NCBI GenBank assembly: GCA_038087875.1
Contig: CM075989.1
Span: forward strand, 1,922,001-1,986,000
Direction: 5' to 3'
DNA from: Malacoraja senta
Taxonomy: Eukaryota
Length of the DNA stretch: 64,000 nt
The translations under genes and the position numbers were made by a program. The notes beneath the pieces are model-generated. The model was not told the DNA's origin. It made no database searches and worked only from the letters and a program-made list of their open reading frames with translations. Position 1 is the stretch's first letter; each line of letters begins with the position of its first letter. Of the stretch, positions 581-51,238 are shown in pieces.

Positions 581-3485
581 TCGATGAGTTGAACGCCGTA
601 ATAAGGTCGATGAGTTGAACGTTGCAGATAGCAATTAATGATTATGATATAGTTGGGATCACGGAGACATGGCTCCAGGGTGACCAAGGCTGGGAGCTGA
701 ACATCCAGGGATATTCAATATTCAGGATGGATAGAGAGAAAGGAAAAGGAGGTGGGGTAGCATTGCTGGTTAGAGAGGAGATTAACGCAGTGGAAAGGAA
801 GGACATTAGCTTGGAGGATGTGGAATCGGTATGGGTAGAGCTACGAAACACTAAGGGGCAGAAAACGCTGGTGGGTGTTGTGTACAGGCCACCTAGCAGT
901 AGTCGTGAAGTTGGGGATGGCATCAAACAGGAAATTAGAAATGCGTGCAACAAAGGGCAAAACAGTTATAATGGGTGACTTCAATCTACATATAGATTGG
1001 GTGAATCAAATTGGCAGGGGTGCTGAGGAAGAGGATTTCTTGGAATGTATGAGGGATAGGTTATCTAAACCAACATGTAGAGGAACCAACGAGAGAGCAG
1101 GCTATTCTAGACTGGGTATTGAGTAATGAGGAAGGGTTAGTTAGCAGACTTGTTGTGCGTGCCCCCTTGGGCAAGAGTGACCATAATATGGTTGAGTTCT
1201 TCATTAGGATGGAGAGTGACATTGTTAATTCAGAAACAACGGTTCTGAACTTAAAGAAAGGTAACTTTGAGCGTATGAGACGTGAATTGGCCAAGATTGA
1301 CTGGCAATTAGTTCTAAAAGGGTTGACGGTGGATATGCAATGGAAGGCATTTAAAGACTGCATGGATGAACTACAAAAATTGTTCATCCCAGTTTTGGCA
1401 AAAGAATAAATTCAGGGAAGGTAGTGCATCCGTGGATAACAAGGGAAATCAGGGATAGTATTCAAAGCAAAAGATGATGCGTACAAATTAGCCAGAAAAA
1501 GCAGCATACCAGAGGACTGGGAGAAATTCAGAGACCAGCAGAGGAGGACAAAGGGCTTAATTAGGAACGGGAAAATAGATTATGAAAGGAAACTGGCAGG
1601 GAACATAAAGACTGACTGCAAAAGGTTTTTATAGATATGTGAAGAGAAAGAGATTAGTTAAAACAAATGTAGGTCCCTTGCAGTCAGAAAAACAGGTGAA
1701 TTGATCATGGGGAACAAGGATATGGCGGACCAATTGAATAACTACTTTGGTTCCGTCTTCACTAAGGAAGACATAAATAATCTGCCGGAAATAGCAGGGG
1801 GCCGCGGGTCAAAGGAGATGGAGGAACTGAGTGAAATCCAGGTTAGTCGGGAAGTGGTGTTGGGTAAATTGAATGGATTAAAGGCCGATAAATCACCAGG
1901 GCCAGATAGGCTGCATCCCAGAGTACTTAAGGAAGTAGCTCCAGAAATAGTGGATGCATTAGTGATAATTTTTCAAAACTCTTTAGATTCTGGAGTAGTT
2001 CCTGAGGATTGGAGGGTAGCAAACGTAACCCCACTTTTTAAGAAGGGAGGGAGAGAGAAAACAGGGAATTACAGACCAGTTAGTCTAACATCGGTAGTAG
2101 GGAAACTGCTAGAGTCAGTTATTAAAGATGGGATAGCAGCACATTTGGAAAGTGGTGAAATCATTGGACAAAGTCAGCATGGATTTACGAAAGGTAAATC
2201 GTGTCTGAAGAATCTTATAGAATTTTTCGAGGATGTAACTAGTAGAGTGGATAGGGGAGAACCAGTGGATGTGTTGTATCTGGATTTTCAGAAGGCTTTC
2301 AACAAGGTACCACATAAGAGATTAGGATACAAACTTAAATCACACGGTATTGGGGGTTCAGTATTGATGTGGATAGAGAACTGGCTGGCAAACAGGAAGC
2401 AAAGAGTAGGAGTAAACGGGTCCTTTTCACAATGGCAGGCAGTGACTAGTGGGGTACCGCAAGGCTCAGTGCTGGGACCCCAGCTATTTACAATTTATAT
2501 TAATGATCTGGACGAGGGAATTAAAAGCAACATCTCCAAGTTTGCGGATGACACTAAGCTGGGGGGCAGTGTTAGCTGTGAGGAGGATGCTAGGAGACTG
2601 CAAGGTGACTTGGATAGGCTGGGTGAGTGGGCAAATGTTTGGCAGATGCAGTATAATGTGGATAAATGTGAGGTTATCCACTTTGGTGGCAAAAACGGGA
2701 AGGCAGACTATTATCTAAATGGTGGCCGATTAGGAAATGGGGAGATGCAGCGAGACCTGGGTGTCATGGTACACCAGTCATTGAAAGTAGGCATGCAGGT
2801 GCAGCAGGCAGTGAAGAAAGCGAATGGTATGTTGGCCTTCATAGCAAGAGGATTTGAGTATAGGAGCAGGGAGGTTCTACTGCAGTTGTACAGGGTCTTG
2901 GTGAGACCACACCTGGAGTATTGCGCACAGTTTTGGTCTCCAAATCTGAGGAAGGACATTATAGCCATAGAGGGAGTGCAGAGAAGGTTCACCAGACTGA
3001 TTCCTGGGATGTCAGGACTTTCATATGAAGAAAGACTGGATAGACTTGGCTTATACTCGCTAGAATTTAGGAGATTGAGAGGGGATCTTATAGAAACTTA
3101 CAAAATTCTTATGGGGTTGGACAGGCTAGATGCAGGAAGATTGTTCCCGATGTTGGGGAAGTCCAGGACAAGGGGTCACAGCTTAAGGATAAGGGGGAAA
3201 TCCTTTAAGACCGAGATGAGGAAAAACTTTTTCACACAGAAAGTGGTGAATCTCTGGAACTCTCTGCCACAGAGGGTAGTTGAGGCCAGTTCATTGGCTA
3301 TATTTAAGAGGGAGTTAGATGTGGCCCTTGTGGCTAAAGGGATCAGGGGGTATGGAGAGAAGGCAGGTACGGGATACTGAGTTGGATGATCAGCCATGAT
3401 CATATTGAATGGCGGTGCAGGCTCGAAGGGCCGAATGGCCTACTCCTGCACCTATTTTCTATGTATCTATCTATGTATCTATGTA
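581..3485 (+). mobile_element. Young CR1-clade LINE (HER1-like) with near-complete ORF2 (APE endonuclease + RT)
   Basis: Endonuclease motifs GITETW, MGDFN, SDHN. RT motifs KSPGPD, NYRPVSL, LDFQKAF, GVPQGSVLGP, FADD. (TATG/TATC)n tail. TSD tctgagg at 574-580 and 3486-3492. Several frameshifts upstream of 1700. Confidence 0.95.
1701..3380 (+). CDS. CR1 ORF2 reverse transcriptase, uninterrupted C-terminal 559 aa
   Basis: ORF track. RT motifs intact through to the natural stop (...EKAGTGY*). Confidence 0.85.
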   Translation: MIMGNKDMADQLNNYFGSVFTKEDINNLPEIAGGRGSKEMEELSEIQVSREVVLGKLNGLKADKSPGPDRLHPRVLKEVAPEIVDALVIIFQNSLDSGVVPEDWRVANVTPLFKKGGREKTGNYRPVSLTSVVGKLLESVIKDGIAAHLESGEIIGQSQHGFTKGKSCLKNLIEFFEDVTSRVDRGEPVDVLYLDFQKAFNKVPHKRLGYKLKSHGIGGSVLMWIENWLANRKQRVGVNGSFSQWQAVTSGVPQGSVLGPQLFTIYINDLDEGIKSNISKFADDTKLGGSVSCEEDARRLQGDLDRLGEWANVWQMQYNVDKCEVIHFGGKNGKADYYLNGGRLGNGEMQRDLGVMVHQSLKVGMQVQQAVKKANGMLAFIARGFEYRSREVLLQLYRVLVRPHLEYCAQFWSPNLRKDIIAIEGVQRRFTRLIPGMSGLSYEERLDRLGLYSLEFRRLRGDLIETYKILMGLDRLDAGRLFPMLGKSRTRGHSLRIRGKSFKTEMRKNFFTQKVVNLWNSLPQRVVEASSLAIFKRELDVALVAKGIRGYGEKAGTGY

Positions 3486-4270
3486 TCTGAGGCAGAGAAT
3501 TCACACATTCACAACTCTCTGTGTGAAAAAGTTTTTCCTCATCTCCGTTCTAAATGGCTTACCACTTATTCTTAACCTATGGCCCCTTGCTCTGGACTCC
3601 CCCAACATTGGGAACATGTTTCCTGCCTCTAGCATGTCCATACCCTTAATAATCTTATTCATTTCAATAAGATTCCCTCTCATCCTTCTAAATTCCAGAG
3701 TATACAAGCCCAGCCGCTCCAATCTATCAACAAATGACAGTCCTGCCATCCTGGGAATTAACCTCGTGAACCTACGCTGCACTCCCTCAATAGCAAGAAT
3801 GTCTTTCCTCAAGTTTGGAGACCAAAACTGCACACAATGCTCCAGGTGTGGTCTCACTAGGGCCCTGTACAACTACAGGAGGACCTCTTTGCTCCTATAC
3901 TCAACTCCTCATGTTATGAAGGCCAACATGCCATTTCCTTTCTTCACTGCCTGCTGTACCTGCATGCTTACTTTCAGTGACTGATGAACAAGGGCCCCCA
4001 GCTCCCGTTGAACTTCCCCTTTTCCCAACTTGACACCATTTAGATAATAATCTGCCTTCCTGCTTTTGCCACCAAAGTGGATAACCTCACATTTATCCAC
4101 ATTAAACTGCATCTGCCATGCATCTGCCCACTCACCCAACCTGTTGAAGGTGAAGGGGGAAATATTTAATAGGATTTAATAGGATGTATGGAACAAGCTG
4201 CCAGAGGAGGTAGTTGAGGCTGGAACTATCACATTTAAGAAACAGTTAGACAGGTACATGGATAAAAGAA

Positions 4271-4306
4271 GGGTCTGAAGAAGGGTCTCGACCCGAAACG
4301 TTACCC
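4271..4306 (+). ncRNA. Minimal type I hammerhead ribozyme motif (Penelope-derived repeat)
   Basis: GGGT-CTGAAGA-A-GGGT(CTCG)ACCC-GAAAC-GTT-ACCC: 4-bp stem I, catalytic core boxes, stem II and GUU triplet. Confidence 0.65.
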
Positions 4307-4634
4307 ATTCCTTCTTTCCAGTGATGATGCCTGCTCCGCTGAGTTTGGAGTAGTTTTGGAGGGATATTGACTGAGTGCGGGCAGCTGGGACTGGTGTAGA
4401 TGGGACATGTTGGCTGTTTTGGGCAAGCTGGGCCGAAGGGCCTGTTTCCACACTGTATCACTCTGTCTCTATGATGCTAAATCAGAGCAGGACCTAAACG
4501 GTGAATGGCAGGAGTCCGTGGAGTGTTGTAGAGCAGAGTGATCTAGGAGAGGTAGTGCATAGTGCCGTCACGTCCTCCCTGAATGCTTGTGCTGTGAAAT
4601 CTGGTTTACACTGTAAAGCCAGTAAAAAGAAGAG

Positions 4635-6663
4635 GTTCAGGGATAGTATCAAAGCAAAAGATGATGCATACAAATTAGCCAGAAAAAGCAGCATACCAGA
4701 GGACTGGGAGAAATTCAGAGACCAGCAGAGGAGGACAAAGGGCTTAATTAGGAAAGGGAAAATAGATTATGAAAGAAAACTGGCAGGGAACATAAAAACT
4801 GACTGCAAAAGTTTTTATAGATATGTGAAGAGAAAGAGATTAGTTAAAACAAATGTAGGTCCCTTGCAGTCAGAAACAGGTGAATTGATCATGGGGAACA
4901 AGGATATGGCGGACCAATTGAATAACTACTTTGGTTCCGTCTTCACTAAGGAAGACATAAATAATCTGCCGGAAATAGCAGGGGATCACGGGTCAAAGGA
5001 GATGGAGGAACTGAGTGAAATCCAGGTTAGTCGGGAAGTGGTGTTCGGTAAATTGAATAGATTAAAGGCCGATAAATCACCAGGGCCAGATAGGCTGCAT
5101 CCCAGAGTACTTAAGGAAGTAGCTCCAGAAATAGTGGATGAATTAGGGATAATTTTTCAAAACTCTTTAGATTCTGGAGTAGTTCCTGAGGATTGGAGGG
5201 TAGCAAACGTAACCCCACTTTTTAAGAAGGGAGAGAGAGAGAAAACGGGGAATTACAGACCAGTTAGTCTAACATCGGTAGTGGGGAAACTGCTAGAGTC
5301 AGTTATTAAAGATGGGATAGCAGCACATTTGGAAAGTGGTGAAATCATTGGACAAAGTCAGCATGGATTTACGAAAGGTAAATCATGTCTGACGAATCTT
5401 ATAGAATTTTTTGAGGATGTAACTAGTAGAGTGGATAGGGGAGAACCAGTGGATGTGTTGTATCTGGACTTTCAGAAGGCTTTCGACAAGGTCCCACATA
5501 AGAGATTAGGATACAAACTTAAAGCACACGGTATTGGGGGTTCAGTATTGATGTGGATAGAGAACTGGCTGGCAAACAGGAAGCAAAGAGTAGGAGTAAA
5601 CGGGTCCTTTTCACAATGGCAGGCAGTGACTAGTGGGGTACCGCAAGGCTCAGTGCTGGGACCCCAGCTATTTACAATTTATATTAAAGATCTGGATGAG
5701 GGAATTGAAGGCAACATCTCCAAGTTTGCAGATGACACTAAGCTGGGGGGCAGTGTTAGCTGTGAGGAGGATGCTAGGAGACTGCAAGGTGACTTGGATA
5801 GGCTGGGTGAGTGGGCAAATGTTTGGCAGAAGCAGTATAATGTGGATAAATGTGAGGTTATCCACTTTGGTGGCAAAAACAGGAAAGCAGACTATTATCT
5901 AAATGGTGGCCGATTAGGAAAAGGGGAGATGCAGCGAGACCTGGGTGTCATGGTACACCAGTCATTGAAAGTAGGCATGCAGGTGCAGCAGGCAGTGAAG
6001 AAAGCAAATGGTATGTTAGCTTTCATAGCAAAAGGATTTGAGTATAGGAGCAGGGAGGTTCTACTGCAGTTGTACAGGGTCTTTGTGAGAGCACACCTGG
6101 AGTATTGCGTACAGTTTTGGTCTCCAAATCTGAGGAAGGACATTATAGCCATAGAGGGAGTGCAGAGAAGGTTCACCAGACTGATTCCTGGGATGTCAGG
6201 ACTTTCATATGAAGAAAGACTGGATAGACTTGGCTTATACTCGCTAGAATTTAGGAGATTGAGAGGGGATCTTATAGAAACGTACAAAATTCTTATGGGG
6301 TTGGACAGGCTAGATGCAGGAAGATTGTTCCCGATGTTGGGGAAGTCCAGGACAAGGGGTCACAGCTTAAGGATAAGGGGGAAATCCTTTAAGACCGAGA
6401 GAGAAAAAACTTTTTCACACAGAGAGTGGTGAATCTCTGGAACTCTCTGCCACAGAGGGTAGTTGAGGCCAGTTCATTGGCTATATTTAAGAGGGAGTTA
6501 GATGTGGCCCTTGTGGCTAAAGGGATCAGGGGGTATGGAGAGAAGGCAGGTACGGGATACTGAGTTGGATGATCAGCCATGATCATATTGAATGGCGGTG
6601 CAGGCTCGAAGGGCCGAATGGTCTACTCCTGCACCTATTTTCTATGTATCTATGTATCTATGT
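4635..6663 (+). mobile_element. Second, 5'-truncated copy of the same young CR1 family
   Basis: Near-identical to 1449-3485. RT open to ~6398, where a 1-nt deletion shifts the frame. Same 3' UTR and tail. Confidence 0.95.
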
Positions 6664-7534
6664 GTTAGATTTGTCAGTATGTGACCACACAGTGAATGAC
6701 AGGACTAATGAGTGCTGGTGAGTGGCGGTTAACACATGGATATACAGCGAATGGAGGAATATGTTTCACGTGCAGGAAGAGGAGTTTATCTTGGTATCAT
6801 ATTCAGCATGGACAATGTGGACCAAAGGGCCTGTTTCTGTCCTGTACTGTTCTATGTTCTATGAATCTACAAAAAGAGAAAACTACCATCACTGATTGCG
6901 TACCTTTTGTTGCAAGTAACAATTTGATTTCAGGAATAGCAGCTGTTTCCAGGCCAGCTTTCTCATTCCACGCAGCTTTCACACTGCTCCGATCAATACA
7001 GAATCTAGTGACCATTATTGACTACGGATATATTGGATGCTGGCAAGGCACTTGTTTAGCAGTGGAAATTAAAAAACAAGTGCTGCAAATCCGTCAGGAA
7101 TAAAAGTGGGAAGAAACACACAATTAAAGTCTCACAATGTCATATAAATATAACACTGTTTGAAATTTGAACCACAAAGAAAATTTGACCGTAGCTTTTG
7201 AAAGAGAAGGGGCGGGGCGAATGATTCAGGCCGGTTACTTCATTGGATCACGTTTGAACGGGCCTGATTGAATCCTATCCTCCAATTTCAGATATTGGCC
7301 AGCATTTCTCAGTGATGAGACAGTCCAAAGTGCCGCTTCTCAGATACAAACCAAGAACTGAGAAATATGTCAAATTTAAAATGTTTAATCCGTTTTTAAT
7401 TGTACTGTCCATATTCACAAATATAACTATTTCTAAAGATGTGAGATGTTCCTCACACAGATACATCACTCTCCGAAATGTTGTGTAGATCAACAAATCT
7501 CAAAAATATCACAACAATGCACAAACGTGATAAG

Positions 7535-8440
7535 CACACTCACACTTGCCACACACACTCACGCTCCTCACATACACATTCACACTTGCCACACACACTC
7601 ACGCTCCTCACATACACATTCACAATCCCCACACACACTCACAATCCCCACACACACTCACAATCCCCACACACACTCACGCTCCTCACACACACACTCA
7701 CAATCCCCTTACACACTCGTGCTGCTCACATACACACTCACAATCCCCTTACACACTCACGCTCCTCACATATACACTCACAATCCCCTTACACACTCAC
7801 GCTCCTCACATACACACTCACAATCCCCTTACACACTCACGCTCCTCACATACACACTCACAATCCCCTTACACACTCACGCTCCTCACATACACACTCA
7901 CAATCCCCACACACACTCACAATCCCCTTACACACTCACGCTCCTCACATATACACTCACAATCCCCTTACACACTCACGCTCCTCACATACACACTCAC
8001 AATCCCCACACACACTCACAATCCCCACACACACTCACAATCCCCTTACACACTCACGCTCCTCACATACACACTCACAATCCCCATACACACTCACAAT
8101 CCCCACACACACTCACAATCCCTACACACACTCACAATCCCCTTACACACTCGTGCTGCTCACATACACACTCACACTTGCCACACACACTCACGCTCCT
8201 CACATACACACTCACAATCCCCACACACACTCACAATCCCCTTACACACTCACGCTCCTCACATATACACTCACAATCCCCTTACACACTCACGCTCCTC
8301 ACATACACACTCACAATCCCCATACACACTCACAATCCCTACACACACTCACAATCCCCACACACACTCACGCTCCTCACATACACACTCACAATCCCCT
8401 TACACACTCACGCTCCTCACATACACACTCACAGTCCCCA
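7535..8440. repeat. CA-rich compound minisatellite (alternating ~20-nt units CACACTCACAATCCCC.. and CACACTCACGCTCCTCACAT)
   Basis: Directly visible tandem repeats. Confidence 0.95.
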
Positions 8441-11400
8441 AACCTTACACATAAACCTCAGGGACGTACGCACAGCCTTTACAAAGTTGTACGTCTACCT
8501 TACATGTACACTCAGACATCCCAGACAATCCAGTCACGTACAAAGCTCACAGATGGAGATACAACAAATCTCTCCCACAAGCATGGGGTTATGGGGAGAA
8601 GGCAGGAAATGGGATTAGGAGGCAGAGATCAGCCATGATTGAATGTCGTAGATTTGATTGGCTGAATGGCCTAATTCTACTCCTATAACTTGTGAACTTG
8701 TAAAATAGAACATAGAACAGTATAATAACAGGCCCTTCAACCTACAATGTCTGTGTGGGACATGATGCCAAGACCATCACTTATCTACCTGCATATAACC
8801 ATATCCTCCCACTCCCTGTATATCCATGTGCCTCTCCAAGAGTCTTTGAATGGATCTGTTTCAACCACCACCCCAGACAACATAGTGTTCCTGCACTCAC
8901 CGCCCTTGGTGGAAAAACCTTGCCCTGCTCATCTCTTTTAAATACAAATATACAGACAAAACCTCCTGCACAGACTCAGGAAGCTTTCCCTGACTCACAT
9001 ACACACACAAGTACATAAAATACACACTCATATGTACATAAACCCAAGATCGAGATTACACTCAATGGGTCAGAGATAGCTAGAGACAAGGAATAGGTGA
9101 CATTTTGGCTCACCTTCTTCAGACTGAGAGTCAAGGGGGAGGGAAACTAGAGGCATGAAAAGGTACAGAACAAATCAGAACCAGCACTGATGATGAAGGA
9201 AAGGTGGAGCCCATCATGGTTCATTGTTGATTTCATAGATGTGACAACAAGGGGGATATATGGATGTCAACGTGGAACTGGCAGGATGATTAGAGTTGGG
9301 GAAGAGGCAGAGAGAGAAAGGGGATGCAAGGGTCAATTGAAATTGGAGAAATTAATGTTCATACCGCTGGGGTGTAAGCTGCCCAAGCGAAATATGAGGC
9401 GCTGTTCCTCCAATTCGTGCTGGGCCTCACTCTGACAGTGGAGGAGGCCCAGGACAGAAAGGTCAGTGTGGGAATGGGAAGGGGAATTAAAATGTTTGGC
9501 AACCGGGAGATACAATGTGTGCATACACCAAATACTTGCACATACAATCACATACACAGTCATACATACCACACACACACGCACACACCCATGCACACAC
9601 ATGCATCATACACATGAACCTTAAGATTGTTTGCCACATATACACGCACATGCATGTGTACCTGTTCAGGTAGCACACACGCACACAAATGCAACAGCTG
9701 CTGGAATCATCAGAGCAGATTTGGCAACAGATGCTGTTTTCATTGCATCTGTCATTTAGCAAGGAGCACTGTGGTGAAGTTGAGCAGTGGAACAAGATGT
9801 CAAACACTAATCAGAGACCAACTGAACCAATTAACGAGTCACCTTATTGTTGCGCTGAAAAGCCAGCATTCATCGCAAACAGGTTTCTGCTTTCACAGTG
9901 TGGAGGACCCAGCTTAAAATCACCTTGTGCTAGAATGGTGCAAACACCACTGTAAAACCACCTGTGCAAGATGTGTAGTGCTGAAAGCCAGGAGCAAAGA
10001 CCAAAGTTCTGGGACACATAATGCTGTTGTATCTCAGCGGGACAGGCAGCATCTATGGATAGAAGAAGGATCTCGACCAGAAAAGTCACCCATGCCTTCT
10101 CTCCAGAGATGATGCCTGAGTTACTCCAGCATGTTGTGTCTGTCATCGGTGTAAACCTGTATCTGCAGCTCGTTCCTAAACAAAATGTAGGGTGCGTGGG
10201 AGGGAAATGCACAGGTGAGGTTTTGGGGTAGGATTCAAATTCAGACAGATTGGTAGAGGGGAGAAAGAACAGAGTGCATAAGGTAGACACAAAATGCTGG
10301 AGTAACTCAGCAGGACAGGCAGCTTCTCAGGAGAGAAGGAATGGGTAACGTTTCGGGTCGAGACCCTTCTTCAGTCTCTTATATGTTCATAGAACAAAGG
10401 AACAGGTCCTTCGACCCACAATGTCTGTGCCGAACATGATGCCAAGTTAAATTAATCTGCACATGATCCATATTTGTCCATTCGCTGCATATGCATTTGC
10501 CTATGTAAAAGCCTCGAGCAAAACATAAAGAGCTGGAGGAGCTCAGTGGATCAGGCAGCATCTGTGAAGGGAAGTGTCAAGAGTGAAGAGTGTGTTATAG
10601 TCATGTGTCCCAGATAGAACAATGCCATTCTTACTTGCTGCAGCACAACAGAATATGCAATCATAGTCTGATATGACTAACGAGAGAGAGAGAAAAGAAA
10701 AGCTCCGTGTGTATATAGACCACAACAGTGGTCTGTCAAGGTTTCGGGTCAGGATCCTGATTCGATTATAGTAATAATAATAATAATAATAGATTTTATT
10801 TATATAGCGCTTTTCAGGACTCAAAGTCGCTTTACAATTGAGAGTCAGGAATAAACAAAACAAAATAGAGCAGTAAGACAGAGGGGAGGGGAACATGGGA
10901 CTAAGGGTATGCAGAGGTGAAGAGATGGGTCTTGAGGCGGGACTGGAAGATGGTGAGGGACTCAGAATTTCGGACCGGTTGCGGGAGGGAATTCCAGAGC
11001 CTGGGAGCTGCCCTGGAGAATGCTCTGCCTCCAAAAGTGCAGAGGGGAGAGAAAGCTGGTAAAGAGAGGTGGGGGCAGGACAAAGCATAGCAATTGATTC
11101 TTCAGTGAGAAGAAGGGTCCCGACCCAAAACGTCACCCATTCCTTCTCTCCAGAGATGCTGCCTATCCCGCTGAGTTACTCCAGCATTTTGTGCCGGCCC
11201 CCAGCAAGTGATAGGTGGATACAGATGATGGGGGGCTGAGGTTGTCAGATGGGTGGAGTCAGTGACAAAGGCGAGAGATGAAATAGGGACAAATGGGTGA
11301 CACATGAGGAAGGAAGGGACAAATGTGATAAAAAGGAACTGTAGATGCTGGTTTATACCAAAGATAGGCACAACATGCTGGAGTTACTCAGTGCAGCACA

Positions 11401-19056: not shown

Positions 19057-22000
19057 ACATTCTTTGCCACCTTTATGGAATTGAAGATGAATGTGCCCAA
19101 GCTTGTTGTGGTATATTTTTGAACAAGCAATTAAAAAGGCAAACGAAGAAGGTTTCTGCCCCAAAATGTCACTTATCCATGTCCTCCAGAGATGCTGCTT
19201 GACCCACTGAGTTACTGCAGCATTTTGTCTTCCTTGCAAACTTACAGCATCTGCAGTTCTTTGCATCTCCAATAAGGCAAATGGTATTTTATCCTTTATT
19301 GCGAGGGGACCCAAATATATGAGGTGCTTTGCTCCATTTATATAGGACTTTGGTAGGACTAATTGCGCACTTGTCTGGCTTAAGAAAGGACATCATTATG
19401 GATAGACGAATGCAATGTAGGTTTGCCAGCTTGATTGTGCAATGGTGGGTTTGTTATATGAGAGGACATGCATGCGGGACCGGTATTCTTTTGATTTGAG
19501 AAGAAACATACAAAATTGGCTGGACTGGGCTATTGTTCCTTATTTAGATATCATAAACAAAGGGTCACAGTCTCAAAACTGGTCCCTCAGAACTGAGATG
19601 GGAAGAAATGTCTTCACTCAGGGGTGGTTGCTATTTGGAAGTCTCTACCATAGGGAGTGCTTCATCTCCCTCACTCTTTTTCTCTCTTGCTCACATCTCT
19701 CAGAGCTCCAAGGCTCCTTTGTGGTAAGGTGGCATGTGGGATTACACCAGCAGTTCTTTATTCATTCATGCTTTATAGATGTTGCTGCTGAGCCTGTAGT
19801 TATTGTCAATCCCTATTTTCTTTAGACCCTAAGTCCCAGATATAACCTTTAACTTAGGGCCCTCACTAAAATCCTACACATACGTAACTTTTTTGCATAT
19901 CTTTCATTCATAGTTCTTTATCTCTCCATATCACCATCTATATCTCTCGTTTCCCTTATCCCTAACCAGTCTGAAGAATGGTCTTGACTCGAAACATCAC
20001 CCATTCCTTCTCTCCAGAGATGCTGCCTGTCCCGCTGAGTTACTCCAGCTTTTTGTGTCTGTCCTACACATAGAACTTAGTTTGAGTTGAGTTGAGTTGA
20101 GTTTAGTTTATTGTCACCTGCACCAAGGTACAGTGAAAAGCTCTTGTTACCTATGTGTCCCACCTCCCATCCCCAGCTCTGAGAGTCGAGGAGAACTGCA
20201 CACTTCCACGTAACCCTGAAGTTCATACTCCAGTTCTACGCCTAGAAGTATAGACTTGATGTTTTCCTAACGTGTACATCAAATATAATGAAAGCAAGCA
20301 AAAGAGTTTGGATTCCCTGTTATCACTGGATGAGCTGACAATGGCCACTCGTTCCTTCAAAGCATATAAACCTCCTTGCAATTGCTTCGCATAGATGGTG
20401 GTGTGCATGTAGAATGAGCTGCCAGAGGAGACTATTGAGGCAAGGGCGATGAGGACGTCTGACAAACATATAGGCTAGTACACGGATAGAAATGTTTCAG
20501 AGGGACATGGCCAAATGCAAGCAAATGGTACTAGCTCAGCGATGAAAGCTGATCAGCGTGGACAAGTTAGGTCGAAGGGCTTGTTTCCTTGCAGCATGAT
20601 TCTACCAGTGTCTGGGGCGATTAATCTGACGCACACACACAGCTGGAGTCACAAAAAACTGCAGATGCTGGAATCTTCAGTAAGTGCTGGAGGAACTCAG
20701 TGGGATAGGCAGCATTTGTGGAGGAAATGATGAAGGGTCCTGATCTGAAACATCATCTGTCCATTCCATCCACAGATGCTGCCTGACCCGCTAAGTTCCT
20801 CCAGCACCTTTAGTTGTGACACACACAGAGCTGATCGTTCCTCCATGTTTAGATGGAGTGGAATAGAATGGATAACGGAACCAGGCCATTTGGTTCAAAT
20901 ATATTCCACACAAGCACCCTCCTTCCCATTCATCTACAACCTACACCCATATTAATTCTCCCATCAGAGCCTCATAACAAGGTCTAGCAGAGTTTAAACT
21001 ATTCTGAGCAGGGTTACTGGGCTTGTCGAGAGGGGGCTGGTGGAAAGGCGAATGTACAGTTTGTACACTTGCTGGCTTTGGAAGGGCACCAATGTACATC
21101 CTCCGTGTTACCAGGTGTTCACAGGTACATGAGTGTGTAACTGAAGATAGGGACAAAATGCTGAGTAAGTCAGCAGGACAGGCAGCATCTCTGGAGAGAA
21201 GGAATAGGTTGCAGGTCGAGACCCTTCTTCAGACTAGAGTCATGGGAAAGGGAAACGAGTGATATAGACGGCGATGTAGAGAGAGATATAGAACAAATGA
21301 AGGAAAGATATGCAAAAAAGTAACGATGATAAAGGAAATAGGCCATTGGTAGCTACTTGCTAGAGGAGAACGAGAAGCTGGGTTGGGGAGGGACGGAGAG
21401 AGAGGGAGTGCAGGGGTTACTTGAAGTTAGAAAAATCAATATTCATACCCCTGGGTTGTAAGATGTTCAAGAAGGAACTGCAGATGCTGGAAAATCGGAG
21501 GTAAAATTGCTGAAGAAACTCAGCGGGTGCGGCAGCATCTAGATGCTGCCGCACCCGCTGAGTTTCTCCAGCAATTTTGTCTACCTCTGGGTTGTAAGCT
21601 GCCCAAGCGAAATATGAGGTTGCTGTTCCTCCAAATGGTGTTTAGCCCCACTCTGACAATGGAGGAGGCCTGGGACAGAAAGGTCGGTGTGGGAACGGGA
21701 AGGAGAATTAAAGTGTTTGGCAACCGGGAGATCAGGTAGGTTCAGGTGTGCATTTGGGCGCGTGTAATCTCTCCTCCTTGTCCCACTCCGCCCGTGCCTC
21801 TGGGAATGTGCATCACAGGACCCGGCCAGATGGTCAAGTGGCAGCTCTTCATGCAAGGAACGCTCGGCCAGACGCTGAAACTCTCCTGCATTAATATTCA
21901 TCATTATCACAGGAATGACCCTTGCTGTCCTGGACCTGCTGCAATTACTGTTCACAGGTAGCATCTTCACCTGTAACATCTGAAGGGCAATTAGTCAACA

Positions 22001-22110
22001 AGCTTCCTACTTAAGCATTTTCTGTTGGATCATTAGCGAGACATTGCAAAGGAAAATGTTACAATCACTGGCGGCATGGTGGTGCTGCGGTAGAGTTGCT
22101 GTCTCACAGG

Positions 22111-22823
22111 CGGGGGCGGAAAACCCAGGGGGGCCAGAGGGGACACGTCCCCTCCATGTTTTGAGAGGTGGGGGGACATCCCCCCCAAGTTTTTGTAATC
22201 CGGATTTTAAAATCCGGTGATCGAGGGCGGCGATTGGAGGAGAGAGACGTCGGTCAGCAGGCAATGGGGGCGGGACATGATTCAGCACGATGATTGGTGG
22301 AGGGAGGAGTGGGGGGTGGGACTGAGGATAGAGCGCGGTGATTGGAGGAGGGAGACGTGGCATAGACCTGCGCTTCATCCGCAGGCAGGATCGATCCCGG
22401 CCGGGTGTCCGGAGCTGTCCCGTCTCCACCCGTGTGCCCCTCCTGGTGTCCACCCGTGGTGGCCAGAGAGGTCGGCAGCAAAGATCCTCTGCTATAGGAT
22501 CTTTGGTCGGCAGTCAGACGGGCCAGCGCAGAGAAACAGCGCTAAACCCAGCTAACTCTGCCTGTCCCGCCAGGTGAGCTTACAACCCTTCCTGGACGCG
22601 GGAAATATGGCCAGTGCGGAGAAGCAGCGCTGGTATCCCGTCAGCCCAGACAGGGCTGTAGTTAACCCGGTGAAGACAGGCAGTTGAGCTGCATTTAGCG
22701 CTGGATTGACCCTCCGAAGCCTCGCGCGCGTGTGTGTGTGTGTGAGTGGGCGCATGCGCGCGTGGCTGCCAAAAAATTGTGTCCCCCGTCCCCTCCATGT
22801 TTTGATAGCGAGTTCCGCTCTTG
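22111..22823. mobile_element. Non-autonomous hAT-type DNA transposon inserted in an HE1 SINE
   Basis: Imperfect TIRs CGGGGGCGGAA / TTCCGCTCTTG. Imperfect 8-bp TSD ctcacagg / cttacagc. The SINE is contiguous across the insert (22071-23095). Confidence 0.75.
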
Positions 22824-23137
22824 CTTACAGCGCCAGAGACCCGGGCTTGATCCTGACTGCGGGTGCTGTCTGTACGGAGTTTGTACATTCTTCTCGTGAC
22901 CTGCGTGGGTTTTCTCGGAGATCTTCGGTTTCCTCCCACACTCCAAAGACGCACAGGCTTGTAGGTTAATTGGCTTCTGTAAACATTGTAAATGACCCCT
23001 TGTGCCTGCAGGATAGTGTTAATGTGTGGGGATCGCTGGTCAGCATGGAGGGTTGAAGGGCCTGTTTCCGTGCTGTATCTCTAAACTGAACTAAACACTG
23101 AAAACAGACTCCAAATTAGTTAAAGACCTTCCACATC

Positions 23138-35944: not shown

Positions 35945-38521
35945 TTACAGTGCCGGAGACCCCGGTTCCTTCCTGACCACAGGTGGTGTCTGTAAGGAGT
36001 TTGCACGTTCTCCCTGTGACTACATGGGTTTCTTCCAGGTGCTCCAGTTCCCTTCCACGGTCCAAAGACGTACAGGTCAGTAGGTCAATTTACTTTGGTA
36101 ATTGCAAATTATCCTTAGTTTGTCGGATTGTGCTGGTGTATGGGGTGATCGCTGGTCGGCACAGACTCGGTGGGCCGAAGGGCCTGTTTCCATACTGTAA
36201 AGTCTAATGAAGAATGCCATCTTTGAATACCTGAATTCCTGTGCTGTACTGTTCTATGTTTTATGTTCTAATGCTGCACTTGAGCATGGGTTTGGATTTG
36301 GGGAATAGTGATCTGTCCTCTGCGGGCAGAACCAGTGCATGGCTCCTTCAACTCCCACATCTCTGGTTCCTTTTCTTCAGCACCGCCTCAGGGCTGACGG
36401 GCACCAGTTCCCACTCCGTTGTCAGGGGAGAGAGATGTTTACGTGAGGGTATTCTCAGGCTGGGTGGGTCACCAAACTGCAGCTGTGAAAGGTGCTGATG
36501 GTTTAACGGCACTTTATGACCTCATGTCCCAAGGTACAGTGACATTCTTTGTCCTTGCCTACAATTCACAAAGTACACAAAGGGATGCCAAGTATCTGGT
36601 GCTGACAAAGTTACAAAGCACTCATTAGAGTCGCGATGATCCCTCTTGGATCTCGGTGCTCCTGGCTCCTCCCTCGTTCTCGGTGACTCACAGACCCTTC
36701 CACAGATAGGGTGGAAAGTCCACGACTAGGTCAATGGGTGCGTTCCTTCCACCATTTACCCTGGGGTTCATGTGCATCCGACACTCGGGCTCAATGTTCC
36801 CTGTGTCAGCCTAAACGCTCCTTCTCCACTTGAACCGGGCAAGATCCAGAGATTTCCAGCAGTCATTGGGGGCTTTACACTGTGGGACTGAGCAGAGCGG
36901 CATGGTGGTGCAGCTGGTAGTGCTGCTGCCTCACAGTGCCAGAGACCCCAGTACGATCCTGACCTCGTGTGCTGTCTTTGCGGAGTTTGCGTGTTCTCCC
37001 TGTGACTGCGTAGGTTTCCCCTGGGTGCTCCAGTTTTTCTCTCACATCCCAAAGACGCGTGGGTTTGTTGGTGAATTGGCCTCTGTCAATAATATTGTGC
37101 AGGGAGTGGGTGAGAAAGTGAGATAACATAGAACCAGTGTGAATGGATGATCAGTGGTCGGCAGGAACTCGATGGGCCGAAGGGCCTGTTTCCATGCTGA
37201 ACCTCTAAAACTACAACATCCTTGAAACTTTTAATCTGTCCACCTGATCATCTCTTCCCTTGACAGATGGTTTTGGGAGTTGGTATTTTCAGTTTAGTTT
37301 AGATTAGAGATACAGCATGGAAACAGGCCCTTCAGCCCATCGAGTCCGTGCCGACCAGCAATCCCCATACACTAGCACTATCTTACACACTGGGAACTGC
37401 TGTAGGAAGGAACTGCAGATGCTGGTTTAAACCGAAGATAGACACAAAATGCTGGAGTAACTCAGCAGGACAGCGTCTCTGGAGATAAGGAATGGGTGAT
37501 GTTTTGGGTCGAGACGGGTCGGGTCTGAAGAAGGGTCTCGACCCGAAACGTTCCTTCTCTCCAGAGATGCTGCCCATCCTGCTGAGTTACTCCAGCTTTT
37601 TGTGTCTATCTTATGGGCAATTTATGATCTTTACGAAGCCAATTAACCTATCAACCTGCACATCTTTGGAGTGTGGGAGGAAACCGGAGCACCCGGAGAA
37701 AACCTACGCAGGTCACGGGGACAAGGTACAAACTCCATACTGGCAGCACCCGTAGTCGGGATCGAACCCAGGTCTCTGGTGGCTGTCAGGCAGCAACTCT
37801 ACCGCTGCGCCACCATGCTGCCCCCTTTGTGCATACACATGAGGTAGCCTGGGGAGTGGAGTAGTGTGCTGATTGTTACGAAGGCCGCAGTTTACTGGGT
37901 GTCTGCGAGACGATGTTGATATTGGTCTCCTTATCCAACGAGTGGATTTACAGAATTTTGCAGAAGCATAAAATCATGAGAGGAATAGATCAGGTAGATG
38001 TACTCTTTCCCAGAGTAGGGGTATCGAGGACCAGCGGACATAGGTTCAAGCTGAAGGGGAAAAGATTTAATAGGAATCTGAGGGGTAACTTTTTCACACA
38101 AAGGGTGGTGGGTGTATGGAACGAGCTGCCAGAGGAGGTAGTTGAGGCTGGGACCTAAGAAACAGTTAGACGGGTACATGGATAGGACAGGTTTGGAGGG
38201 ATATGGGTCAAGCGCAGGCAGGTGGGACTAGTGTAGCTGGGACATGTTGGCCGGTGTTGTATGAAGGGCCTGTTTCCACACTGTATCGCTTCAGGTGTCT
38301 GCAGGAAGCACTTTAGCTCTCAGAGTTATTGGGAGGGTAGGTAGACTGTAGGCTTTGTACCTGTTAATGATCTTCAAACGCCTTTCTCCTGAGTTGACCA
38401 AAGACTGTGCTAGCACAATGAAGGGGCGTGAAAATTCATCATCAGTGCTTGCCTTCATGAGTGGTGGCTTTCAAGAATTGGTGCAGAGTCTTACTGTGAA
38501 CCTTCATTGCCAGAGAATAGT

Positions 38522-39140
38522 GTTGGTACAGGGCCTGTGGTTGGTAGAGGGCCTGTGGTTGGTACAGGGCCTGTGGTTGGTACAGGGCCTGTGGTTGGTA
38601 CAGGGCCTGTGGTTGGTACAGGGCCTGTGGTTGGTACAGGGCCTGTGATTGGTACAGGGCCTGTGGTTGGTACAGGGCCTGTGGTTGGTACAGGGCCTGT
38701 GGTTGGTACAGGGCCTGTGGTTGGTACAGGGCCTGTGGTTGGTACAGGGCCTGTGGTTGGTACGGGGCCTGTGGTTGGTACGGGGCCTGTGGTTGGTACG
38801 GGGCCTGTGGTTGGTACGGGACCTGTGGTTTGTAGGGGGCCTGTGGTTGGTACAGGGCCTGTGGTTGGTACAGGACCTGTGGTTGGTACAGGGCCTGTGG
38901 TTGGTACAGGGCCTGTGGTTGGTACAGGGCCTGTGGTTGGTACGGGGCCTGTGGTTGGTACAGGGGCCTGTGGTTGGTACGGGACCTGTGGTTTGTAGGG
39001 GGCCTGTGGTTGGTACAGGGCCTGTGGTTGGTACAGGGCCTGTGGTTGGTACAGGGCCTGTGGTTGGTACGGGACCTGTGGTTTGTAGGGGGCCTGTGGT
39101 TGGTACAGGACCTGTGGTTGGTACAGGGCCTGTAGTTGGT
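38522..39140. repeat. 18-bp minisatellite (TGTGGTTGGTACAGGGCC)n, about 34 copies
   Basis: Directly visible. Confidence 0.97.
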
Positions 39141-39942
39141 TCAAGTTCAAGGCTGATATGCTTTAGTGAAATAGTGAACGATGACTGGAGCTCAGCCTAT
39201 GTGAAAGCCCAATGCCCCCTGAGTAAGGCAACTCTAGATCTGGGCTGATTGTGGTTGTAAAATGTAGGTGACAAGGCTGAACAGCATCATGAGCCCTATA
39301 GTTTACTCCAGCTCAACAGGAACTTTGTTGGAGGTGAGCCATGCCATGGTGGTGAGTAACATTGATTTGTACGGGTCTCAGGGGTGATGGGGAGAAGGCA
39401 GGAGAATGGGGTTGAGAGGGAAAGATAGATCAGCCATGACTGAATGGTGTAATAGACTTGATGGGCCGAATGGCCTTATACCGCTCCTACAACTTATGAA
39501 CTTATGAACAAATGATTGTCAGGAAATGCCCAGCCTGGCTTGGCACCAGTCTTAACCTGTCGATCTGGTGATTAGGATCACACTTTGCATGTCAATAAGT
39601 TCAAAAGTTTATAAGTTACAGCAGCAGAATTAGGCCATTTGGCCCATCAAGTCTACTCCGCCATTCAATCATGGCTGATCTATCTTTCCTTCCAAACCCC
39701 ATTCTCCTGCCTTCTCCCCATAACTCCTGACATCCGTACTAATCAAAAATCAGTCAATCCCCGCCTTACAAATATCCACTGACTTGGCCTCCACAGCCGT
39801 CTGTGGCAAAGAATTCCACAGATTCACCACCCTCTGACTAAAGAAATTCCTCCTCATCTCCATTTTAAGGCAAATTGTGAAGCAAATACAAGATGGAGCC
39901 TTTAAGGCAAATTTGAAGAACTTGCTCTGAAATTAGAGTCAA

Positions 39943-42257: not shown

Positions 42258-43130
42258 TACAATACAATTTATTTGTCTTTTTTTGTCTTTTGGACAAATT
42301 TGTCATTTGGACCCCGTTGAGGTCCAAACGAAATATCGTTTCTGCAGCCATACATTACAAACCGAAGAAGACCCGAGACACAACACAATTTACACATACA
42401 TCCATCACAGCGCTGTGATGGAAGGCAACAAAACTTATCTCTCCACTGCACTCCCCCCCCCCCCCCCCCCCGATGTCAGAGTCAAAGTCAAAGCCCCCGG
42501 CGGGCGATGGTGATTATCCCGCGGCCATTAAAGCCACGCCGGGCGATGCAAGGTCTTGGTGTTAGAGCCCCGGCGTGCGCTCGCAAAGTCCGGCGGCCAT
42601 TCCAAGCCGCACGGGGTGACGATGTAAAGCCCCGCTCCAGGTGCTCTTCAACCCCGCAACTCGGGCGGGAGAAGTCGCCGCTGCGGAAGCCCCGAAAAGC
42701 GGTCTCCCACCAGGGACCCGCGGGCTTCCGGTGTTGCCGTCCGCCAGACCCGCGGCTGCAGCCTCCGAATCTCCGGGGGTCGGGTCGCAGCAGCGATTGT
42801 CTCCACCACAGCTCCACCCGCTCCGGACTCGGCCAGCCCCGCGACGGTGAGAAGTCCGCAGCTCCGCAACTGGAGCCCCAGGTCGTTCCTGCTGGAGGCC
42901 GCTCCACGTTGCCCAGCCCCAACGACAACGGAGACCCGACAAAGAAAAGGTCGGGTCTCCTGTGCAGGGGAAAGATTTTAAAGTTTCCCCCCACCCCACC
43001 CCCACCCCCACCCCCCCACACACATACCCCGACAAAAATAATAATAAAAAACTACATAAAAACGAGACAAAAATAATAAAAAGACAGACGGACTGCAGAG
43101 GCCGTTGCAAACGAGAGTCGTGCCGCCCAC
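42258..43130 (-). mobile_element. GC/CpG-rich non-coding retroposon, copy 1
   Basis: Near-identical to 46685-47511. Ends in a stem-loop followed by ACAAATAAATTGTATTGTA. Interrupts an HE1 SINE tail. Confidence 0.75.
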
Positions 43131-46684: not shown

Positions 46685-47511
46685 GTCATTTGGACCCCGT
46701 TGAGGTCCAAACAAAATGTCGTTTCTGCAGCCATACAATACAAAACGAAGAAGACCCGAGACACAACACAATTTACACATACATCCATCACAGCGCTTTG
46801 ATGGAAGGCAAAAAAACGTATCTCTCCACTGCACTCCCCCCCCCCCCCCCCGATGTCAGAGTCAAAGTCAAAGCCCCCGGCGGGCGATGGTGATTATCCC
46901 ACGGCCATTAAAGCCACGCCGGGTAATGCAAGGTCGCGCACCGGGTCTTGGTGTTAGAGCCCCGGCGCGCGCTCGCAAATTTCCGACGGCCATTCCAAGC
47001 CGCGCGGGGCGACGATGTAAAGCCCCGCTCCAGGTGCTCTTCAACCCCGCAACTCGGGCGGGAGAAGTCGCCGCTGCGGAAGCCCCGAAAAGCGGTCTCC
47101 CACCAGGGGACCCGCGGGCTTCCGGTGTTGCCGTCCGCCAGACCCGCGGCTGCAGCCTCCGAAACTCCGGGGGTCGGGTAGCAGCAGCGATTGTCTCCAC
47201 CACAGCTCCACCCGCTCCGGACTCGGCCAGCCCCGCGACGGTGAGTAGTCCGCAGCTCCGCAACTGGAGCCCCAGGTCGTTCCTGCTGGAGGCCGCTCCA
47301 CGTTGCCCAGCCCCAACGACAACGGAGACCCGACAAAGAAAAGTTCGGGTCTCCCGTGCAGGGGAAAGATTTTAAAGTTCCCCCACCCCCACCCCCCCAC
47401 ACACATACCCCGACAAAAAAAAACAAAAAAAACTACATAAAAACGAGACAAAAATAATAAAAAGACAGACAGGCTGCAGAGGCCGCTGCAAACGAGAATC
47501 GCGCCGCCCAC
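46685..47511 (-). mobile_element. GC/CpG-rich non-coding retroposon, copy 2
   Basis: Same 5' start (GTGGGCGGC) as copy 1. Lacks the terminal AATAAA tail. Confidence 0.75.
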
Positions 47512-47519
47512 TAAACTAA

Positions 47520-50500
47520 ATGTTCCGAAGGTTGAGGAGGGCCAGGTAAAAGTCAGAATAGGACAGCCTACAATGTTCCAGCAAGTCCTTAGCACTGCAG
47601 AGCCGTTGCTTTGTGGGTACTCTGGGCTGCTGGTATAGTGTCGGAAGTTCCAGCCGGCAGCGAAACGCCGAAATTCGGCACTCGAGAACTTGCTGCCGTT
47701 GTCCGATTGAAGACTTGCCAGGGTTCCGAAGGTTCCGAAGTGTTGGCGCAGCTTCCCGATAATGGCTGAAGAGGTGAGGGAGTGCAGCCGGTCAACCTCG
47801 AACCAGCTGGAGTACGAGTCCACAAGAACCAGGAAGTGCTTGCCACGCCACTCAAAAATGTCACCGGCGACAGTCATCCAGGGCAGCTCGGGGGCAGGCT
47901 GCTGCAGAAGCGGCTGCCGTTGCTGATGGGGAGTGAGGCTATTGCAGACAGAGCAAGCGGAGACCCTCTCCCGGATGTCTTGGGCCATGCTGGGCCAGTA
48001 GAACAAACTCTGGACTTGGGATAGGGTGGCCTCGGCCCCAGGATGACCGCGATGGGCGGTATGAAAGTATTGGTCACGCAGGGCAGCAGGCATGATGACC
48101 TTGTGTCCCTTCACGACCACGCCGTCGTGCAGCACAAGTTCGTCACGGACCAGGAAGTAGGGCACGACTCCAGGCGGCAAGGATGAACGACGGTCTGGCC
48201 AGCCCTGCCTGATGACGTTGGCAAGCTGCTGCAGGGCAGGGTCCTTGGCAGTGTTGCTGACCAGGGACTGCATGTGCTGGGAAGGCACAATGTTGACGTT
48301 AAGCACCATCAGGCCGGACGATCCATATGGATGACGATCGGTGGACGTTAGTGGTGCGCGGGACAGCGTGTCGGCCACAAACATGTCCTTGCCCTTGCGA
48401 TATACAATTTTGAACGTAAAACGCTGGAGCTGCAGCATCATGCGCTGCAAACGGGACGAGGCAACGTGGATCGGCTTGTTGAGGATAGAGACCAGCGGCT
48501 GATGGTCGGTCTCGATCGTGAAGCTGTATCCCAGAATATAATCCTTGAACTTGGAGCAGGCAAACACCACAGCAAGCAGCTCCTTCTCTATCTGAGCATA
48601 GCGCTGCTCGGCAGGGGTCATGGTGCGGGAAGCGTAGGAAACAGGCAGCTGCAGGCCATCGCGGAGCTGCAGGCAAGCAGCACCAAGACCGAACTTGGAG
48701 GCGTCGCAGGTAAGAACAATGGGACGCTGCAGATCGAAGAATTGGAGAGTGGGGGCATTGGCCAGCCTGGACTTCAGAATGTCGAAAGCTTTCTGGAGAT
48801 GTGGGAGCCAGGCCCAGGCAGTGTCCTTCTTGATCACCTCCCTCAGGGGCGCACTCAGCTCGCTGAGGTCAGGGATGAACTTCCCCAGGTAATTAACCAT
48901 GCCCAGGAAACGCTGCAGGCTGGGCACGTCGGTGGGCGAAGACATCCCGGAGACCGCGGTTGTCTTCTGCGGGTCAGGCTTCAGCCCCGATGCGGTAAAG
49001 ACGTGGCCCACATAGGTGACGTCCAGGACGCGGAAACGGCACTTTTTTGGATTTAGTTTGAGGTTGATTTCACGGGCCTGGTCCAGGACTTGACGGAGGT
49101 GGAGATCGTGCTCAGCAACGTCCTTACCGTAGACCAGGATGTCGTCAACGATGATAGCACATGGCAGACCGGTGAACAGCTGCTCCATCGTCCGCTGGAA
49201 GACCTCGCTGGCAGAGTTGATCCCGAATGGCATGCGGAGGAATCGGAACCTGCCGAAGGGCGTGCTGAAGGTAGTCAGGTAGGAGGACCGCTCGTCCAGT
49301 GGTATCTGCCAGAAGGAGCTCTTGGCATCGAGAACCGAAAAGACAGTGGCCGGGCCAACCTGTGCAGCGACGTCCTCCACTGTTCGCATGGGGTAATGTG
49401 GGCGTCTGATGGCAAGATTCAGGTCTTTGGGGTTGATGCAAATGCGAATTTCACTTTTGTCCTTTTTCGCAGCAACAACCATGGTGGAGACCCACCGGGT
49501 GGGTTCGCTCACCTCCTTCAGGATGCCCATGGTAACCATGTTGAGCAGCGTTAACTCCACCTTGTCCTTCATGGCGAAGGAGACGCGGTGTGGTGGACCG
49601 ATCATAGGTTCAACACCGGGGTCGACAACGATCTTGTAGCTGCAGGGCAGCTTGCCCAGCTTGTCATCAAAACGGTCAGGGTATTCGCGCAGGGGGTCCA
49701 TAAGGGTCTGCACCTGGTGGATATCACGGTGGAAAGAGACCAAGCCGAGGTCCTGGCATGCCCGGGCGCCCAACAGGGTGATGTTGTTTGTATCCAGTAG
49801 ATAAAAAGTGAGGGGCCGAGAGGCACGCAGTACCTTGCAGTGCAGGGTAACCCTCCCCACCGGAACAGGCACGCTTCCCCCGTAGGCATGCAACAGGGAG
49901 TGATCGGGAGTAACTTTCGCATCAGTCCTTATCTTCTTGAAGAGGCCTATTGACATTACATTGGTCACGGCCCCCGTGTCGAGTTTGGCGTTGAAGGTCG
50001 AACCGTTGACAGTGACGCGAACCGAAGGGTCCGTTATCAGTGCAGGTGCATCCAACACTGAAAATATGCTGGTCTCCCCCTGGGAGGAACTTGTATCAGA
50101 CAAAGGGAGTTCATCAGGCTGGAACTGTGAACCAAGCGCGCTATCAGCTCGAGCAAGGTTGTTTAACATTCGGCATGGAGCAGAAACTGGCTTCCCACGA
50201 GAGCGACAGGCTGCAGAGAAATGGTTCAATTTCCTGCAAAAATTGCACGTTTTCCCCAGCGCAGGGCACACATTAGACTGATGGGAGGTAAAGTTGCAGT
50301 TGGGGCACCGCTGTGAGCTGCTACCCCCGGGTGCAGGGGACTCCCGTTGCCGTTGCGGGCCAGCGTTCCGCCGGCGGCCAGGAACACTGGCAAAGTTAAT
50401 GTCATGATCAGCAGACGACACCGCCGAGGCGACAGCCTCAGCCATGCGGGAGGCGTGCAGAGCATCGGCTAAAGACAGGTCGTGCTTCCGCAGAAGTTCA

Positions 50501-50982
50501 GCCCTTAGTTTTTCATCTTGAAGACCATACACTAAAATGTCCCGGGTCAGTTGATCGGGGGTCAGCGTGTCCAGGCTGCAACGCCTGGCCAGGTGACGCA
50601 ACGCGGCGATATAGTTATCGATTGACTCTCCAGAGATCTGACGCCGGGTGAACATTTTAAAACGCTCTAGAATGCAGTTAGTGGGGATGTCGCACATTGC
50701 GGTAAACTTAGCCATAAGACATACCGGGTCCTGAGCATCTTCACCTGCACCATAGACAAACGACTCAGCCCGTCCCAGGGCATCAGGACCAGCCAGGTTG
50801 AGAAACAGAGAAGCCCGTGTAGCAGGGGTGGCAGCAGGATGGGCGATCGTGGCATAGTGTTGAAAGTCACGTCTAAAGACACCCCACCGATGGGCAATGT
50901 CCGAGTCGAAGACAAGCATGTCGGGTTTGCGGCAAGAAGTAGCCATGGCACGGGAGATTAAGAAATGGGGAAACGGGTCCAA
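47520..50982 (-). pseudogene. Ty3/Gypsy gag-pol polyprotein, single ORF; integrase frameshifted and truncated
   Basis: Two CCHC knuckles (CPNCNFTSHQSNVC, CNFCRKLNHFSAAC), protease LDTGA, RT (LDAKSSFWQI, MPFGI, IVDD), RNase H (CDAS, EKE, TDH, ADTLSR), integrase HHCC plus D..SDNG..YPQSNG. Domain order PR-RT-RH-IN. Confidence 0.95.
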
Positions 50983-51024
50983 AGTAAAGAAAAAACGATA
51001 AACTGGAGGCGCAAAGGTACGAAG

Positions 51025-51033
51025 CTGACACCA
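51025..51033 (-). promoter_or_regulatory. Primer binding site, tRNA-Leu-like
   Basis: TGGTGTCAG directly after the LTR CA, complementary to the ...CUGACACCA 3' end of tRNA-Leu(CAA/CAG). Only 9 nt match. Confidence 0.7.
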
Positions 51034-51238
51034 TGTAAAGAGGCGTCATAACACACTGTGTCTTTACTACTGTTTATTTATGATACACATACTTTACTGC
51101 CCTAGCTGTTCGTGGTCTGTCACCGGAACCAGAGAGAGAGAGCACTGGGTGGGAAGGTTGTAATTATACTAGTGATGTGGGGAGTGGTTAGTAGTGGTGA
51201 GGTCACTATGTTAAAGGTACATGCACATGTCATCTACA
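51034..51238 (-). mobile_element. 5' LTR of the Gypsy element (205 bp)
   Basis: TGTAGA...TTTACA termini. TATAAT (~51163-51168) and AATAAA (51073-51078) on the minus strand. Immediately followed by the PBS and abuts a broken HE1 SINE. Confidence 0.85.

Follow-up and report, generated by a model that had tools for sequence, protein, structure and literature searches.

A 27-bp insert at positions 22479-22505 was found to lie between two identical 8-bp words, and the resulting scar at 22471-22513 is probably the excision footprint of a P-type transposase. The whole stretch of DNA analysed, 64 kb in length, is referred to as the window. The left 8-bp target-site duplication (TSD) was identified from the window sequence and a repeat scan at 22471-22478 (forward strand), followed by a short arm of 10 nt left from one terminal inverted repeat at 22479-22488 (forward strand), a long arm of 19 nt left from the opposite terminal inverted repeat at 22487-22505 (reverse strand) and the right TSD, identical to the left, at 22506-22513 (forward strand). 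The last 2 nt of the short arm (22487-22488) overlap the long arm. On inspection, the insert was found to consist of two inverted ends fused together; it is unlike its flanks, and its arm is common to separate loci. When the long arm of a second copy at 53.5 kb was taken as the reference, the 27-mer was resolved into arms of 10 and 19 nt that share 2 nt, with one mismatch, a single C>T at 22490; these arm lengths refer to a terminal repeat that was derived from the fusions themselves. The short palindrome at 22471-22513 is a real feature, with both TSDs kept.

The 64-kb window was scanned for exact 8-bp direct repeats flanking an insert of 16-80 bp with inverted arms of at least 5 nt, and two matches only were found, at 22471-22513 and 53551-53599. 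In 60 dinucleotide shuffles the same strict scan gave a mean of 0.05 matches with arms of at least 5 nt, and none with an arm of at least 7 nt. The relaxed scan, which used CA..TG ends and permitted one mismatch in the arm and one in the TSD, returned the same two sites and no match in 40 shuffles. Both scans agree with the original prediction of a 27-bp palindrome between 8-bp TSDs that differ from the TSD at 53.5 kb, and its sequence and coordinates were found to be correct. The predicted match of the right arm to the 53.5-kb copy was found to contain the one transition claimed, whereas its length was 19 nt and not 16 nt.

The sister scar at 53551-53599 (forward strand) contained an 8-bp TSD, a 33-bp fusion at 53559-53591 and the TSD again, the word being other than that of the 22471 scar. 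The 33-mer can be read as 15 + 19 nt with a 1-nt overlap or as 15 + 20 nt with a 2-nt overlap. The left arm of the 27-mer was found to be the shorter, as had been predicted, with 10 nt at the 22479 scar against 15 nt (one mismatch) at 53.5 kb. If no overlap at all is allowed, the long arm still measures at least 17 nt in the 27-mer and at least 18 nt in the 33-mer. Intact tails of 17-20 nt were modelled, and 19 nt alone gave both 27 and 33 bp by microhomology, which is a post hoc fit to two junction classes; for a tail of 20 nt the predicted lengths were 33 and 38 bp. Both inserts contained terminal-repeat tips only, with microhomology within the range of 0-3 nt, the repeat being defined from three fusions including one on a metagenome contig (L001). 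The flanks of the 53.5-kb scar (53080-53712) had no match elsewhere in the window, and no other copy of the arm was found in the 64 kb beyond the two scars. A search of the window for long inserts with a TSD and inverted ends gave three matches, none of them bearing the scar arm. With a different TSD and a different junction, the two scars are to be regarded as separate events.

When metagenome contigs were searched for the 19-nt arm, four loci were found (L001-L004). At 2962-2994, L001 was found to contain a 33-bp two-arm fusion with the same junction as at 53.5 kb (92% over 36 nt), and each of these two 33-mers departs from the symmetric form at one position, a different one in each. The L001 fusion was flanked by a 9-bp tandem word and by no clean TSD. 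An Ig-like exon, a GC content of 39% and the lack of any other sequence in common with the window, in which 20 of the 21 3-kb tiles match repeats elsewhere in the window, indicate that L001 apparently comes from another animal. In L002-L004 just one of the arms was present and no TSD was seen; these loci were treated as chance matches. No match to the 19-mer arm was found in the viral contigs or in the prokaryote genomes, and none to the two-arm pattern in the prokaryote genomes; two viral two-arm matches were rejected, having unrelated centres and no 8-bp TSD. Neither a parent element nor its transposase was found in the window or in the scanned collections, which were mostly prokaryote and viral.

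The 22471 scar is contained in a non-autonomous MITE of 713 bp and 61% GC at 22111-22823 (no strand assigned), which looks hAT-like from its CA start and the 8-bp duplication at its flanks. The MITE splits a SINE at 22070-23096 (forward strand; many copies in the window) into a 5′ part at 22070-22110 and a 3′ part at 22824-23096. The flank duplication of the MITE was alike at six of eight positions and its ends were found to be decayed, while the loose-end consensus of the family contigs before 22113 ended in CA in the three rows shown. The MITE was found to contain several internal repeats, with the word GTCGG native at 22249-22253. One copy of the 713-bp element was present in the window; in public runs the element was highly repeated, with the 27-mer carried as part of the family.

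The depth of this family was obtained from four public runs, chosen from 24 listed and aligned to 21950-22830 at 80% likeness; X19 and X20 are of organism E, X21 of organism F and X1 of organism A. Six listed flank differences were present in X21 and X1, and none in organism E. The unique-flank depth was 32.5, 3.1, 9.74 and 33 in the four runs. Relative to it, and in the same order, the depth at 22490 was about 5,119, 3,838, 1,931 and 2,618 times, followed by 4,641, 1,968, 954 and 633 times at 22513 in the right TSD; all depth figures are sums over contigs and hold to the order of magnitude only. The nucleotide C was found at 22490 in 99, 97, 90 and 91% of the depth, and the window contains T before G; the T, a CpG-type change, is thus a minority state, absent from most family copies, since 90-99% of the family depth reads C in all four runs. 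Across 19 nt, the long arm as found in the family is identical to the 53.5-kb arm.

The whole insert was crossed by 5 of the 32 listed pieces, which differed at 11-17 letters and had gaps amounting to 0-11 letters; by a 31-letter rule, the left junction was bridged by four of these pieces and the right junction by one. From their sequence they appear to be diverged MITE paralogues bearing the insert. Depth across the insert was only 0.33-0.71 of the MITE median, and part of the family may be without the insert or the alignment may be poor here. None of the 15 joints shown, out of 96, was found to skip 35 bp as an empty site would, and among the listed pieces none extends from the unique flank into the MITE. 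The perfect TSDs within a decayed MITE had suggested a late insertion into this one copy, which was ruled out by these runs. The 27-mer is thus best understood as having arisen once in the MITE ancestor and then been copied passively, with no event at the 22471 locus itself. Passive amplification had been suggested in the original prediction, and it is confirmed by the depth inside the insert, about 1,900-5,100-fold that of the unique flank in all four runs (three organisms), and by the 27-mer in diverged paralogues. The independence also claimed there holds with respect to the 53.5-kb scar, whereas no insertion or excision belongs to this locus, the 27-mer being part of the MITE family. The possibility that the motif is confined to this MITE family, with no empty site and no full element, had been raised as well; in a limited search neither of the two was found, whereas the motif was also present outside the family, at 53.5 kb and in L001.

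Several other differences were seen in the family reads around the scar. In X1, a contig of depth 4,970 contained 4 extra letters behind 22490; it may belong to a class with a longer junction, or be a variant form of a MITE subfamily. At 22511, most of the depth in organisms A and F contained G, against 10% in organism E, and at 22513 about a third contained A, against 1-4% in E; the right TSD thus varies between MITE subfamilies. In a pyrimidine tract at 22430-22459, immediately left of the scar, depth fell about 100-fold, and many family copies seem, from loose ends before 22522, to have about 20 additional bases immediately to the right of the scar.

Excision by a P-type enzyme, the length of the tail and the order of events may be reconstructed from the observed anatomy, the common 19-nt arm, the overlap, the diverged MITE paralogues in three organisms and the third fusion outside this genome. 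A P-superfamily-like cut-and-paste transposon would have entered an ancestral MITE master copy and produced the 8-bp duplication. On excision, the cut in one strand would have been at the element end and that in the second strand within the inverted repeat, at a depth of about 18-20 nt (best fit 19), so that the donor site kept a single-stranded 3′ repeat tail on both sides. During end-joining, the tip of one tail would have paired with 2 matching nucleotides that lie 10 nt along the other tail, followed by trimming of the flap and sealing of the joint to give TSD, 27 bp and TSD. The MITE would then have carried the scar along as it spread, before the three sampled organisms diverged, and this MITE copy would later have inserted into the SINE and decayed.

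The Drosophila P transposase is described as making its second-strand cut 17 bp inside the terminal repeat and as producing 8-bp TSDs (PMC7776569), and the donor junctions listed for it in Tables 1-3 of PMC2895639 contain both TSDs, up to 17 nt of each repeat and 1-3 nt of microhomology, with one arm often trimmed. The build of the scar matches these junctions, which points to a P-type footprint. The original suggestion that trimming of one arm is what end-joining of excision overhangs would produce fits these data, as Drosophila P gives asymmetric arms at short overlap (PMC2895639). The 17-nt limit of the Drosophila arm is exceeded here, since the long arm of the 33-bp class cannot be shorter than 18 nt and is fitted best by 19 nt. 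When the targets were compared with the P motif ATRGTCCGGACWAT (PMC2577343), seven of eight outer positions were found to fit GT....AC (p ~4e-4, post hoc), the 3-bp flanks fitted poorly, and Hermes targets are alike. That both TSDs start with GT had been pointed out in the original prediction and was seen; it does not separate the superfamilies, as P (PMC2577343) and Hermes (PMC2803484) are both described with such targets, and GTCGG is moreover a native repeated word of the MITE. For a vertebrate P family there is a precedent in the zebrafish P-like elements, for which 8-bp TSDs and an enzyme able to excise (zfTHAP9) are described (PMC10983969).

The strongest rival is an extreme internal deletion, in which hAT or P excision was followed by sister-chromatid gap repair that copied the outer bases only and then end-joined, with no long stagger. 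The ends and the 8-bp TSD suit hAT equally well as P, gap repair is given in PMC1562414 as the accepted origin of internally deleted P elements and P-MITEs, and the arms are longer than the 17 nt found in Drosophila. Had synthesis been aborted, scattered end points would be expected, whereas all three fusions end within 19-20 nt in the long arm and 10-15 nt in the short arm, and the identical 33-bp junction recurs in L001; such a deletion is accordingly considered unlikely. Still less probable is that the 27-33 bp units are mobile micro-MITEs which insert as such with their own TSD, as could be supposed from the perfect TSDs at both window scars, a 33-bp unit common to two animals and stable hairpins (z -4.8 to -8.5). 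One arm is common to two different junctions, which points to separate repair events, the host MITE accounts for the abundance of the 27-mer, and P elements are described as needing internal transposase-binding sites past the terminal repeat (PMC7776569), for which 27 bp would be too short. Chance, or local slippage or template switching in a GC-rich MITE with several internal repeats and a native GTCGG at hand, is very improbable and is largely ruled out by the 19-nt arm shared with a copy 31 kb off in unrelated flanks and with L001, and by the shuffle means of 0.05 (strict) and 0 (relaxed).

If the P-type footprint reading is true, these natural scars would mean that a long staggered cut operated in the vertebrate germline, that its depth differs between families and that it can be read from genome sequence, and a scar fixed in the MITE consensus would date the P-type activity to before the spread of the MITE. 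Work on vertebrate P-like elements has been mainly on zebrafish and on the domesticated THAP9. A wider proposal is possible but doubtful, namely that an undescribed P-type family, with its cut about 19 nt from the ends and not 17, was active in the germline of a cartilaginous-fish ancestor and was also present in a distant invertebrate-like animal, possibly through horizontal transfer, and that its scars, including the one frozen in a MITE that reached thousands of copies in several species, record the cleavage and the date of a never-assayed vertebrate P transposase. The 27-bp class cannot be counted here as recent activity, because its members are passive copies of one event; in activity counts it would be inflated by the host MITE and equals one event. 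Footprints of such build are already known from Drosophila experiments, and what remains of interest is that the arms are longer here and that a second animal holds a match. Among the matches listed, no paper on scars of this kind in cartilaginous fish was found, and the motif itself gave an unrelated match only; Repbase, Dfam and most subscription journals lay outside the search, and the scar family may already be catalogued in repeat databases.

The window as a whole was judged by eye to be animal DNA rich in repeats, with frames of LINE-like and LTR-like type, and from its repeat types it looks like that of a cartilaginous fish. Two tandem LINE reverse-transcriptase-like segments (97.5% over 2 kb) were seen at 1449-6663, their open frames measuring 572 and 644 aa, followed by the presence of a 1,334-aa frame of Gypsy-type gag-pol look at 47041-51045 (reverse strand), both assigned by eye. 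Beside the latter frame, repeats of about 830 bp that are 93% identical were found at 42302-43130 and 46685-47511. Short-unit tandem arrays at 38432-39196 and 7437-8638 gave long spurious frames, and 200 N were present near 43.4-43.6 kb.

Among known systems, the hAT element Hermes is described with an 8-bp TSD in which position 2 is T and position 7 is A (PMC2803484), a pattern also found in both TSDs of the window, and the host MITE is itself hAT-like in appearance. The hAT and MULE enzymes differ in that they are described as forming the hairpin on the flank (PMC5499845); it may be inferred from this that plain end-joining would leave no long repeat remnant, and that such remnants are not their normal footprint. 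The 27-mer, with its long repeat arms, is not the flank-derived hairpin product expected of hAT excision. The P-MITEs of Anopheles gambiae (PMC1562414) and BuT5 (PMC3698922) are described as non-autonomous P relatives with 8-bp TSDs (8-9 bp in BuT5), and measure hundreds of bases with subterminal sequence kept, whereas the scars here contain fused tips only. Zebrafish Pdre2/zfTHAP9 is likewise a vertebrate P-like family with 8-bp TSDs, whereas its terminal repeats are given as 13 bp against an arm of at least 19 nt here, a comparison made by description (PMC10983969). The closest likeness was found in the P junctions of Drosophila melanogaster, which are described with 8-bp TSDs kept, repeat remnants fused head to head with 1-3 nt of microhomology, CA..TG ends and one arm often trimmed (PMC2895639; PMC7776569). 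They differ in the repeat sequence and in containing up to 17 nt per arm, against 18-20 nt in these scars (PMC2895639). The Drosophila junctions are experimental, whereas the scars here are natural germline fossils known from fused tips alone, and the 22471 scar, unlike those junctions, was amplified inside another element. The 22471 scar thus likely works like a P-element footprint, its membership in the P superfamily being putative.
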